Shown here: piece by piece, positions 48,775 through 49,939 of the stretch
Layout: every line of letters begins with the position of its first letter
Position numbering within the stretch: position 1 is the stretch's first letter
NCBI GenBank assembly: GCA_963759655.1
Contig: CAVXAG010000039.1
Coordinates: 29,010 to 93,009 of the forward strand
Direction: 5' to 3'
Origin: an uncultured Actinomycetota bacterium
Lineage (GTDB): Bacteria > Actinomycetota > Actinomycetes > Mycobacteriales > Mycobacteriaceae
DNA: 64,000 nt
Notes under the pieces: model-generated
Told to the model about the DNA's origin: nothing
What the model saw: only the letters and a program-made list of their open reading frames with translations
The model's database searches: none
Translations under genes and position numbers: made by a program

Positions 48775-48846
48775 TGGGGTATGGTGTAATTGGCAACACA
48801 GCTGATTCTGGTTCAGCCATTCTAGGTTCGAGTCCTGGTACCCCAG
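48775..48846 (+). tRNA. tRNA-Gln (anticodon CTG)
   Basis: Cloverleaf; acceptor TGGGGTA/TACCCCA (U1-A72); anticodon arm GCTGA-TTCTGGT-TCAGC; GGTTCGAGTCC. Confidence 0.96.
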
Positions 48847-48908
48847 CCCAGAACGGATTAGTGTCGGCCTCCGTCCGTCGGTTATGCTGACGAGCCGGAT
48901 TTGTTCAT

Positions 48909-48981
48909 GGCCCCGTCGTCTAGCGGCCTAGGACGCCGCCCTCTCACGGCGGTAGCGTGGGTTCGAATCCCATCGGGGCTA
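48909..48981 (+). tRNA. tRNA-Glu (anticodon CTC)
   Basis: Acceptor GGCCCCG/CGGGGCT; anticodon arm CCGCC-CTCTCAC-GGCGG; GGTTCGAATCC. Confidence 0.96.
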
Positions 48982-49032
48982 CAAAGTTTCAAGCAGGTGC
49001 CAAGTGGCAATTCCAGTGGCATGGTAGTGAAC

Positions 49033-49443
49033 ATGAAATCAGCGACACGAATGTTTGTGGCTGGTGCGGCTGCGACCGCGGTCCTGGCAGCCCCGATGGC
49101 TGCCGTTATGTGGACCGATGCGACGACGGGCGGCACCAACGTGACGACCTCGGCAGACCCGGGCTGCACTGACCCCAACGGCGCCCCCTGCGGGCCGGGG
49201 AACGCCAACATCAGCGCGCCTGGCGCCAATGCGAATGCCGGGCCGGACAACGCCAGCGCCAGCGTGCCTGGCGCCAACGCGAGTGCCGGGCCGAACAACG
49301 CCGATGTCAGCGTGCCTGGCGCCAACGCGAATGCCGGGCCGAACAACGCCAATGCCAGCGTGCCTGGCGCCAACGCGAACGCCGGACCGGGCTACTTCAA
49401 CGGCTGCATCAACGGCTGGTGCTGGAACGGGAACTCTGGGTAG
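49033..49443 (+). CDS. Hypothetical secreted Asn/Ala/Gly/Pro repeat protein (136 aa; alternative start 49021)
   Basis: Sec-like signal (MKSATR plus hydrophobic core); CTDPNGAPC, 4 x 16-aa repeats, GYFNGCINGWCW; repeat differences sit at synonymous or conservative positions. Confidence 0.78.
   Translation: MKSATRMFVAGAAATAVLAAPMAAVMWTDATTGGTNVTTSADPGCTDPNGAPCGPGNANISAPGANANAGPDNASASVPGANASAGPNNADVSVPGANANAGPNNANASVPGANANAGPGYFNGCINGWCWNGNSG
49198..49389 (+). repeat. Coding tandem repeat, 4 x 48 nt
   Basis: GNANISAPGANANAGP / DNASASVPGANASAGP / NNADVSVPGANANAGP / NNANASVPGANANAGP. Confidence 0.92.
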
Positions 49444-49939
49444 TCGTCGCGGGCGCGGTAGAACCCGCAAGCGGCATCGGCGGCATCCCGAGCTTCCGGT
49501 GATCCCACGAACGGATCCGTTCGATCACCAGACGAACGGCGATGCGATTGTTCATCATCATGTCCACTGCCGTCTTTACGTCGTCGGTGTACGGCCCGGT
49601 GTAGCGCTCCCACACGCTCACACCCACCCGGAAGATCGTGTCGGGGTCATCGACGATCTCGGCTGTGCCCTCGAACGAGACTCCGCGCAAGGTGTCGTAG
49701 GTATCGCCGTCCTCTAGCAGAAACGTGATCCGGGGGTCGCGCCGGATGTTGACCGCCTTCTGCGACTTGGCCTTCGTCTCGAACCAGATCTCGCCGTCGA
49801 CCACGCCATACCACATCGCGGTGAGGTGTGGTTGCCCGTCGCGGTCGACCGTGGCCAGTGTGCCGCCGCGGCTGGATACGACGAAGTCGTGGATCTCGGC
49901 CTGCGACATGACGATCTGCGCGCGTTCATTCTTGCCCAC
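49409..49939 (-). CDS. PNPOx-like, probable F420-dependent oxidoreductase (Rv2991-like)
   Basis: GTLATV..DGQPHLTAMWY, KSQKAVNIRRDPR, LRGVSFEG, SWDHRKLG. Confidence 0.9.
   Translation of the reverse strand: MGKNERAQIVMSQAEIHDFVVSSRGGTLATVDRDGQPHLTAMWYGVVDGEIWFETKAKSQKAVNIRRDPRITFLLEDGDTYDTLRGVSFEGTAEIVDDPDTIFRVGVSVWERYTGPYTDDVKTAVDMMMNNRIAVRLVIERIRSWDHRKLGMPPMPLAGSTAPATTTQSSRSSTSR

Follow-up and report, generated by a model that had tools for sequence, protein, structure and literature searches.

A candidate exported repeat protein of Mycobacterium with a SigF-type promoter and a predicted beta-hairpin sheet between Cys-paired caps

We analyzed a 64,000-nt stretch of DNA (hereafter, the window) from an uncultured bacterium of the Mycobacteriaceae (contig CAVXAG010000039.1) and focused our attention on an open reading frame (ORF) at positions 49033-49443 of the forward strand, which lies beside a tRNA-Glu gene and encodes a small repeat protein. 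We show that this region holds a real gene whose frame is under purifying selection and, from sequence comparisons, that its product belongs to an unnamed, previously undescribed family, confined to Mycobacterium and with no characterized relative. We hold with moderate confidence that the gene encodes an exported, SigF-driven protein with cysteine (Cys) caps around its repeats, which would form a sheet of beta-hairpins; a role at the surface of the cell envelope is a weaker suggestion. A first-pass annotation of this DNA is partly supported: it was right to propose a secreted, uncharacterized, beta-type protein of variable copy number, and its solenoid or amyloid and the importance that it gave to asparagine (Asn) are unsupported. 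New here are the SigF-type promoter, the insertion origin of the gene, the conservation of an alanine (Ala) face, a 16n+7 spacing between the caps, and the hairpin-array model.

The codon statistics and the substitution pattern both point to a coding sequence. GC content is 0.58/0.66/0.81 by codon position in the ORF, and GC at third positions (GC3) is 0.83 in gltX and likewise 0.83 in the neighboring gene of the PNPOx family. Compared with the DNA homologs at loci L001, L013, and L004, the ratio of nonsynonymous to synonymous substitution rates (dN/dS) is 0.24, 0.24, and 0.29, respectively (overall range 0.21-0.29), and the substitutions relative to L001 are concentrated at third positions (13/14/31 by codon position). 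About 50 protein homologs (45-94% identity) retain the signal peptide, the four Cys, the PGA motif, and the C-terminal hairpin. Transcription is suggested by a soil metatranscriptome (X11), in which five contigs match 49141-49255 and 49294-49371 (0-4 mismatches) and are the only ones fully placed on 18 kb of the window; we read these low-depth contigs as supporting evidence for in-situ transcription of the gene or of a near-identical allele.

All of the sequence features listed in the first pass are present in the ORF listing and translation of 49033-49443, which ends with a TAG stop codon at 49441-49443. Translation from the ATG at 49033 yields MKSATRMFVAGAAATAVLAAPMAAVMWTDATTGGTNVTTSADPGCTDPNGAPCGPGNANISAPGANANAGPDNASASVPGANASAGPNNADVSVPGANANAGPNNANASVPGANANAGPGYFNGCINGWCWNGNSG, with an N terminus (MKSATRMFVAGAAATAVLAAPMAAV) that has an n-region and a hydrophobic core. 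The public annotation of the gene is an unnamed product (P0073; 130 amino acids [aa]) that begins at 49051, the third in-frame ATG (MFVAG...), a start that would cut off the positively charged n-region of the signal peptide. We consider the ATG at 49021 (MVVNMKSATR...) more likely to be the true start than 49033 or 49051, because homologs begin with MLVNMKSATR and because the promoter spacing described below fits that ATG. The frame and the stop at 49443 that had been called in the first pass stand, and its start at 49033 probably gives way to 49021.

From this start, the precursor opens with the charged segment MVVNMKSATR, followed by the h-region FVAGAAATAVLAAPMAAV and then by ...TSA/DP. Hydropathy is maximal at residues 13-22, and an A-x-A followed by (D/N)P just ahead of the first Cys is conserved in the family alignment. 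We infer, with good support, that the product is Sec-exported and cleaved near A-x-A/DP. Alignment A1 shows no variation at the first Cys, at least 90% of members have the second, and both C-terminal Cys are invariant in the family alignments; there is likewise good support for the four Cys being oxidized into two local disulfides. Between the two pairs lie four in-frame units of exactly 16 aa (GPGNANISAPGANANA, GPDNASASVPGANASA, GPNNADVSVPGANANA, and GPNNANASVPGANANA), which Tandem Repeats Finder (TRF) reports as a tandem array at 49191-49390 (period 48 bp, 4.2 copies, 87% matches). The repeat region consists of 30% Ala, 23% Asn, 14% glycine (Gly), and 12.5% proline (Pro), with two aspartates (Asp) and no lysine (Lys) or arginine (Arg), and the mature protein is small, acidic, and without Lys or Arg after the signal peptide. 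One face of the repeats (odd positions) is Ala, valine (Val), or isoleucine (Ile) at 24 of 24 positions; the other (even positions) is polar at 16 of 16, with nine Asn, six serines (Ser), and one Asp. The first pass had described a Sec-like signal, the Cys pair CTDPNGAPC, four 16-aa repeats, and an aromatic Cys-paired end, and we find each of them in its place, together with the almost uncharged composition rich in A/N/G/P/S and the alternation of small and polar residues, which is a beta-strand periodicity.

To describe what is constant in these repeats, we compared units across the family. The spacing between the second and third Cys is 16n+7, where n is 1, 2, 3, 4, or 5 in the Asn-rich clade that includes this protein; the widest spacing of the family (L007) corresponds to ~8 repeats, and the loops within the Cys pairs span 4-7 residues (loop 1) and 4-5 residues (loop 2). 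Near-identical alleles differ in repeat number only (four in P0004 vs. one in P0014; five in P0003 vs. three in P0007), as the first pass had foreseen, although collapse of repeats in short-read assemblies could be a source of these differences. Ala occupies positions 3, 5, 7, and 12 in 94%, 89%, 92%, and 89% of units, whereas positions 14 (Ala or Val) and 16 (Val in 89%) are mostly Val, figures that are somewhat favored by the regular expression used to collect units, which limits the scored positions to small residue sets. Pro-Gly and Gly-Pro stand at the turns. Position 4 is Gly (54%), Asn (33%), or Asp (11%) family-wide, position 6 is Asn, threonine (Thr), Ser, Ala, or Val, and positions 13 and 15 are Ser, Gly, Asn, Thr, glutamate (Glu), phenylalanine, or tyrosine. 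The Asn ladder that had been proposed is found in this protein's clade, where Asn reaches 82% and 93% at positions 4 and 11, but not family-wide, where Asn makes up 26-33% at the relevant positions and often gives way to Gly, Asp, Thr, or Glu. Across the aligned sequences, the alternating Ala/Val face with its PG/GP turns is the constant of the family, and the Asn ladder is clade-specific.

We also noted members with frameshifts in the repeat region (for example, ...VPGAGAVAGPEGAGSDRPRRWRH...) at loci L005 and L006/L027 and in proteins P0011, P0016, P0022, P0041, and P0089, from metagenome-assembled genomes (MAGs) and metagenomes. These may be long-read homopolymer errors, or else real pseudogenes or phase variants.

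No family was found for the protein in Pfam (E ≤ 1) or NCBIfam (E ≤ 10), and a sequence profile search of the PDB found no relative, with only chance matches to dihydropteroate synthase (E ~0.8), in agreement with the first pass, which had recognized no family. Literature searches on Asn-rich mycobacterial secreted repeat proteins and on Mflv_1054 found nothing relevant. Homologs, for which a search had been proposed, do exist: an hmmsearch of 1.84 billion cluster representatives returned 55 proteins at E ≤ 1e-3, of which 29 reach E ≤ 1e-10, with the best E-values at 4e-51, and ~50 homologs have the conserved architecture with a varying number of repeats. In alignments A1 and A2, members share a signal peptide, (A/G)(D/N)P...C-x4-7-C, n x [GPxxAxAxVPGAxAxA], and C-x4-5-C near the C terminus. 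All are annotated as hypothetical; the sources that carry a name are soil metagenomes, MAGs of Mycobacterium, and Mycobacterium sp. URHB0044. Of the 34 genera in the taxonomic family, only Mycobacterium (broad sense) has members at E ≤ 1e-8; at a loose per-genome threshold, 112 of 301 Mycobacterium genomes match, a count that includes two related types. Long proteins that also match the repeat profile (P0042, P0046, P0053, and others) have unrelated Pfam architectures and were set aside as look-alikes in repeat composition. One member (L003) sits on a contig (JBLNEK010000229.1) binned as 'Candidatus Sericytochromatia' (Cyanobacteriota); this placement is probably a binning error, because the sequence and its signal peptide look mycobacterial.

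The first related type, a sister subfamily, has a 17-aa unit (GPGGASGAIPGGPAGEA) and caps as in the main family. Its carriers are Mycolicibacterium holsaticum, diernhoferi, fortuitum, aromaticivorans, and gilvum (Mflv_1054), and its entries are all 'hypothetical', some auto-named 'PE-PGRS family protein', names that look like composition-driven mislabels. The second type comprises lipoprotein-type relatives with a lipobox, a Thr-rich linker, GPGGASAxVPGAGAGA repeats, and a C-terminal C-x-G-G-x-C. The genome under study carries one such copy outside the window (G000:C17:156278-156466; locus L009, ~1380-1698), with the lipobox LTGAC, a Thr-rich linker, GPGGASASVPGAGATA repeats, and a C-terminal GACAGGVCVGTGGR loop, and several other Mycobacterium genomes have copies of this type (L023, L024, L025, and L028). 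For this type we considered a possible correspondence to Rv0679c, a Thr-rich lipoprotein of M. tuberculosis, but found no paper giving its sequence and dropped the lead.

The promoter came to light through translation. Upstream in-frame translations of many homologs show a recurrent 'WYS/WYP..M' motif, a sign of conserved DNA at these places. At 22 secreted-type loci, this DNA reads GTTT(C/T)(A/G)-N-(G/T)GGTA; 20 of the 22 match GTTT/GGTT-N15-17-(G/T)GG(T/C)A-N10-12-ATG, and the other two are one-base variants. Spacers have diverged, yet both promoter elements and their distances are retained. The motif is present at all seven sister-subfamily loci examined and absent from five lipoprotein-type loci, and it occurs 183 times in the 11.1 Mb of the genome under study (both strands). 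Three lipoprotein-type copies share a 'cagaatcgag' motif ahead of their ATG.

In geometry, this promoter resembles those of the SigF regulon of M. smegmatis, for which GTTT-N14-19-GGGTA is the published consensus, GGGCA variants are tabulated, and the start codon often follows at a distance of only 8-11 nt (PMC4694148). That regulon is not reported to include any protein of the present family, and SigF dependence is here a prediction. One SigB/F/G-type sigma factor in the genome exceeds the curated cut-off (TIGR02980; 301 bits), and a scan of the region for sigma-70 promoters and intrinsic terminators found none. Since the ATG at 49021 comes only 11 nt after the promoter, a leaderless mRNA is predicted; such mRNAs are common in mycobacteria. 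There is thus good support for the proposal that SigF, a SigB-like sigma factor of stress and stationary phase, transcribes the gene as a leaderless mRNA. Elsewhere in the same genome (G000:C40:80783, + strand), an ORF for a small secreted Cys-rich product of 85 aa (MKNLARVAASTVVMTVGLGLG...PDYHWCPGDFWDPGWGFNWDGGRCHDDFYYDGEP) is preceded by GTTT-N15-TGGTA-N11-ATG and may be a second leaderless SigF-type secreted protein.

Promoter and ORF appear to have arrived together. The tRNA pair and the PNPOx gene are ~5-80 nt apart in relatives (~40-60 nt in genomes G011, G012, and G013). When aligned with these three genomes, the window shows identity to the last base of tRNA-Glu (48982), and identity resumes at ~49446-49452, just past the TAG codon; the ~456 extra bases are exactly the promoter and the ORF. 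Linkage to tRNA-Glu is limited to the closest relatives, and the neighborhoods of three distant members share no neighbors. Because distant members lie at unrelated sites, without the tRNA, and because G012, the closest relative by flank, carries its copy of the gene on another contig, the gene and its promoter behave as one self-contained unit with insertions at different sites. Separately, a soil-metagenome contig (run X4) joins 48982 to 49548, skipping 565 nt, with 29 letters on the shorter side of the joint; it is possibly an empty-site relative, which we count as weak evidence.

We next turn to the fold. AlphaFold2 gave a predicted local distance difference test score (pLDDT) of 49.5 for the full precursor (25 sequences). 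For the mature part (49156-49440; 39 sequences), the best model reached a pLDDT of 80.6 and a predicted template modeling score (pTM) of 0.54, and the remaining four had pLDDT values of 69.6, 47.3, 45.2, and 42.4. Ten strands of 5-6 residues make up the best model: each 8-aa half-repeat supplies one, and a terminal hairpin, YFNGCI/WCWNGN (strands 80-85 and 88-93 of the mature chain), sets the last two Cys opposite each other. Foldseek found no significant match in the PDB (best E = 0.067), where the top folds are a phage baseplate chain (TMq 0.61), unassigned sheet proteins of a ciliary complex (TMq 0.60), and single-layer-sheet variants of OspA; in the viral library, it listed MORN-repeat and uncharacterized proteins, with one borderline match to an uncharacterized iridovirus protein. 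Neither top 50 contains a solenoid, pentapeptide, RTX, or antifreeze fold. The models lend moderate support to an antiparallel beta-hairpin array, a ~10-stranded single-layer sheet, rather than a solenoid. Of the first-pass expectation for an AlphaFold monomer, the beta-type repeat held; the predicted fold was a hairpin sheet and not the beta-solenoid it had favored, and the models were split.

The nearest folds to the AlphaFold2 model are the central sheet of OspA and the MORN repeats, both up-and-down antiparallel sheets of consecutive hairpins. In OspA, terminal elements close the open sheet edges, as they do in our model. Neither is related to this protein in sequence, and the structural matches are not significant. 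The repeat here is 16 aa long, compared to ~23 aa in MORN, and lacks aromatics; the modeled sheet has a whole Ala/Val face and small disulfide-loop caps instead of globular domains.

Taken together, we propose the following mechanism. SigF would switch the gene on under stress or in stationary phase from a leaderless mRNA. Sec would export the precursor, the signal peptide would be cleaved near A-x-A/DP, and two local disulfides would form. Each 16-aa unit would make one beta-hairpin, AxAxV-PG-AxAxA, closed by a GPxN turn, to give an amphipathic sheet with a family-conserved Ala/Val/Ile face and a variable, solvent-exposed Asn/Ser face, both of its open edges being closed by the disulfide-stapled caps. 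Under stress, this silk-like sheet would be released into the envelope, where its flat methyl face might pair with a second copy, as in silk crystallites, or lie on the mycomembrane or another hydrophobic surface. The extent of this face would depend on the number of repeats, and the caps would keep sheets from aggregating edge to edge without limit. The first pass had suggested that disulfide caps control polymerization, but caps conserved at both edges of the modeled sheet fit blocking of open-ended polymerization better than promoting it, and would favor a defined soluble unit over a fiber.

By analogy, the function would be a surface-active or coat role like that of a hydrophobin or chaplin, which we suggest only weakly. 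Chaplins and hydrophobins are likewise small, Sec-exported, Cys-paired, and amphipathic, and this protein has in common with them a hydrophobic-surfaced actinobacterial host and a proposed action at a hydrophobic/hydrophilic interface, although surface activity is here an inference. Unlike chaplins, which have one ~40-aa hydrophobic domain, this protein has 16-aa tandem repeats and no chaplin match in Pfam or NCBIfam, and no rodlin/chaplin gene cluster is present. Other exported or surface proteins of restricted genus range, the mycobacterial Erp (PGLTS repeats) and PE_PGRS, also have Pro/Gly-rich tandem repeats, in numbers that differ among species; in contrast to them, the protein has no PE domain (Pfam), PGLTS motif, or hydrophobic C-terminal anchor, its period is 16 aa, and its ends are Cys caps. 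Its N terminus is a Sec signal peptide. Insect antifreeze proteins of the Rhagium type and silk (GAGAGS) illustrate how alternating small residues can give flat, packable faces with an opposite polar array and disulfide stabilization; no Thr-x-Thr ice-binding motif and no fold match is found here.

Few small structural or surface-active proteins of the mycobacterial envelope are known, and the architecture of this family (two caps, a variable number of identical hairpins, and a single Ala face) suits experiment. The SigF promoter on a leaderless mRNA is a testable regulatory prediction. If the fold prediction is true, the protein would give protein design a natural single-layer beta-sheet of minimal size and would help in studies of how edge caps counter aggregation; if it is surface-active, it would be relevant to how hydrophobic soil mycobacteria are, how they aggregate, and how they survive stress. 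The 456-bp insertion beside a tRNA is an example of a gene spreading as a self-contained unit. In its broadest form, the idea is that SigF-induced, leaderless, single-gene cassettes, hopping between chromosomal sites with their own promoter, make up a Mycobacterium-specific class, founded on this example, that encodes disulfide-capped amphipathic single-layer sheets whose all-Ala face would coat the mycomembrane or pair on it in a silk- or hydrophobin-like way, with sizes set by gain and loss of hairpins. We offer this generalization tentatively and regard it as doubtful.

Several points weigh against the capped hairpin sheet and its envelope role. The structure is a prediction only, in which the full-precursor run and three of the five mature-part models stay below a pLDDT of 50, and no PDB fold matches it significantly. 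A two-sheet solenoid would give an identical inside/outside pattern and keeps part of its probability, because L-Pro-Gly is not an ideal two-residue hairpin turn; we down-weighted it on the strength of the models. The cleavage site is ambiguous (after the h-region or at TSA/DP), because 14 residues separate the two. The SigF assignment was made in silico, and the promoter copy in the window has TGGCA, not GGGTA. The X11 signal consists of a few low-depth contigs and could stem from a close relative. Finally, no neighbor, domain, or experiment speaks to function.

Alternatively, the 16-aa units could each form a coil in a beta-solenoid of two sheets, with Ala at the core and stacked Asn ladders, and this solenoid would polymerize into a fiber whose elongation the caps regulate. 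We judge this unlikely. Under this model, as under the hairpin model, the exact 16-residue period and the alternating small/polar pattern place the same residues inside and outside, the short PG and GP arcs suit beta-arcs, the clade-level Asn frequencies of 82-93% at two repeat positions would suit ladders, and the AlphaFold2 models are not unanimous. However, the confident model consists of antiparallel hairpins, neither solenoid nor antifreeze proteins appear in the Foldseek top 50, and Asn is replaced in most of the family. Solenoid repeat families (pentapeptide, hexapeptide, RTX, ice-nucleation, and antifreeze) gave no match in Pfam, PDB sequences, or the Foldseek top 50. As for a functional amyloid, curli CsgA and Pseudomonas FapC are, like this protein, secreted and built of strand-turn-strand repeats rich in Asn, Gly, Ala, and Ser. 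Curli repeats, though, are 19-23 aa long (Ser-x5-Gln-x-Gly-x-Gly-Asn-x-Ala-x3-Gln) and need csgB/E/F/G. Here, Asn and glutamine (Gln) are not conserved family-wide, the model shows a capped antiparallel sheet, Pfam has no match to a domain of the curli, Fap, or chaplin type, and the curlin repeat profile does not match the protein (P0001; Pfam, E ≤ 1). Genes of the csgB/E/F/G type are not next to the gene in the window, which adjoins a tRNA and the PNPOx gene, and the homologs examined have unrelated neighbors. The lack of amyloid-export, nucleator, or partner genes nearby and the conservation of caps at both ends argue against an amyloid, and this part of the first-pass proposal is not borne out.

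A second possibility, a shade less likely again, is that the repeats are a disordered, elastin- or silk-like Pro/Gly spacer that serves as a flexible or hydrated envelope filler or tether, with only the Cys loops structured. The low-complexity Ala/Asn/Gly/Pro composition, the low confidence of the full-precursor run and of three mature-part models, and a sister subfamily still richer in Gly and Pro would all be in keeping with this, and VPG and GPG motifs resemble the turn motifs of elastin and spider silk. Without a regular fold, however, the two-residue alternation, the ~90% Ala at fixed positions, and the exact 16n+7 spacing are hard to explain, and the best model has a pLDDT of 80.6.

It is very unlikely, in our estimation, that a flat Asn/Ser/Thr face binds ice or ordered water, which would make the protein a stress-induced antifreeze, an inhibitor of ice recrystallization, or a desiccation protectant of soil mycobacteria. 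The regular Asn/Ser array of the polar face, the carriers among soil-metagenome and MAG mycobacteria, and the stress sigma factor as predicted regulator would fit such a role, and bacterial ice-nucleation repeats have the same 16-residue period. But the polar face is the variable face of the family, typical Thr-rich ice-binding motifs are absent, and no ice-binding protein matches in sequence or fold (Pfam, PDB profile, and Foldseek). More improbable still is a secreted antimicrobial or signaling peptide in which the C-terminal Y-F-N-G-C-x4-C-W hairpin is active and the repeats are a carrier. The protein is small, secreted, and disulfide-stapled with Trp-rich ends, its C-terminal motif is the best-conserved element outside the repeats, and it is encoded by a single mobile gene at different sites; the hairpin also recalls the YGNGV-C-x4-C box of pediocin-like bacteriocins. 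That resemblance, though, is short, no bacteriocin family matches (Pfam), and no immunity, ABC-transporter, or processing genes adjoin any member examined. Lastly, a non-coding 48-bp variable-number tandem repeat (similar to a mycobacterial interspersed repetitive unit) beside a tRNA, with a spurious ORF of the kind frequent in high-GC DNA, would account for a tandem repeat at a formerly intergenic position and for all six frames being open across it, but is ruled out by codon statistics (GC3 of 0.81 restricted to this frame) and conservation (dN/dS of 0.21-0.29, a signal peptide and four Cys kept at 45-55% protein identity where the DNA is only ~59% identical, and a promoter conserved at a fixed distance from the ATG).

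The coordinates of the gene, its parts, and its neighbors are collected in Table 1.

Table 1. Features of the repeat-protein locus, in window coordinates
Feature	Position	Strand	Details
SigF-type promoter (predicted)	48986-49009	+	GTTT 48986-48989, N15, TGGCA 49005-49009, N11, ATG 49021
Coding sequence	49021-49443	+	140-aa precursor; alternative starts 49033 (first pass) and 49051 (public annotation)
Sec-type signal peptide (predicted)	49021-49155	+	K/R n-region, h-region FVAGAAATAVLAAPMAAV, Thr-rich stretch ending TSA before DP
N-terminal cap DPGCTDPNGAPC	49156-49191	+	C-x7-C loop (CTDPNGAPC)
Four 16-aa repeats (48 nt each)	49192-49383	+	TRF, in-frame register; G-P-x-N-A-x-A-x-V-P-G-A-N-A-x-A
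C-terminal aromatic cap GPGYFNGCINGWCWNGNSG	49384-49440	+	C-x4-C loop; predicted hairpin YFNGCI / WCWNGN
Lineage-specific insertion	48983-49445	+	~456-463 bp; carries only promoter and ORF
tRNA-Gln	48775-48848		Upstream of tRNA-Glu; ARAGORN, Rfam
tRNA-Glu (CTC)	48909-48982	+	ARAGORN; Rfam tRNA, 59.2 bits; left border of the inserted gene
PNPOx-family (Rv2991-like) gene, convergent	49409-49939	-	Pfam PF01243, E = 4e-22

The gene stands alone between the tRNA-Gln/tRNA-Glu pair and the converging PNPOx gene, as the first-pass annotation had stated, and an Rfam scan of the region found the two tRNAs and no further match. The 3' ends of the repeat-protein gene and the PNPOx gene overlap by 35 nt, and an IclR regulator and then leuC lie beyond the latter. 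Homology of the PNPOx gene to its relatives ends at ~49446-49452 while its ORF continues to 49409, and ~12 of its codons (49409-49446, - strand) come from the antisense strand of the insert. In relatives, the PNPOx gene stops a few codons past the end of homology, and G011 has an inverted repeat there (AATCGCCCGG...CCGGGCGATT) that is missing in the window.

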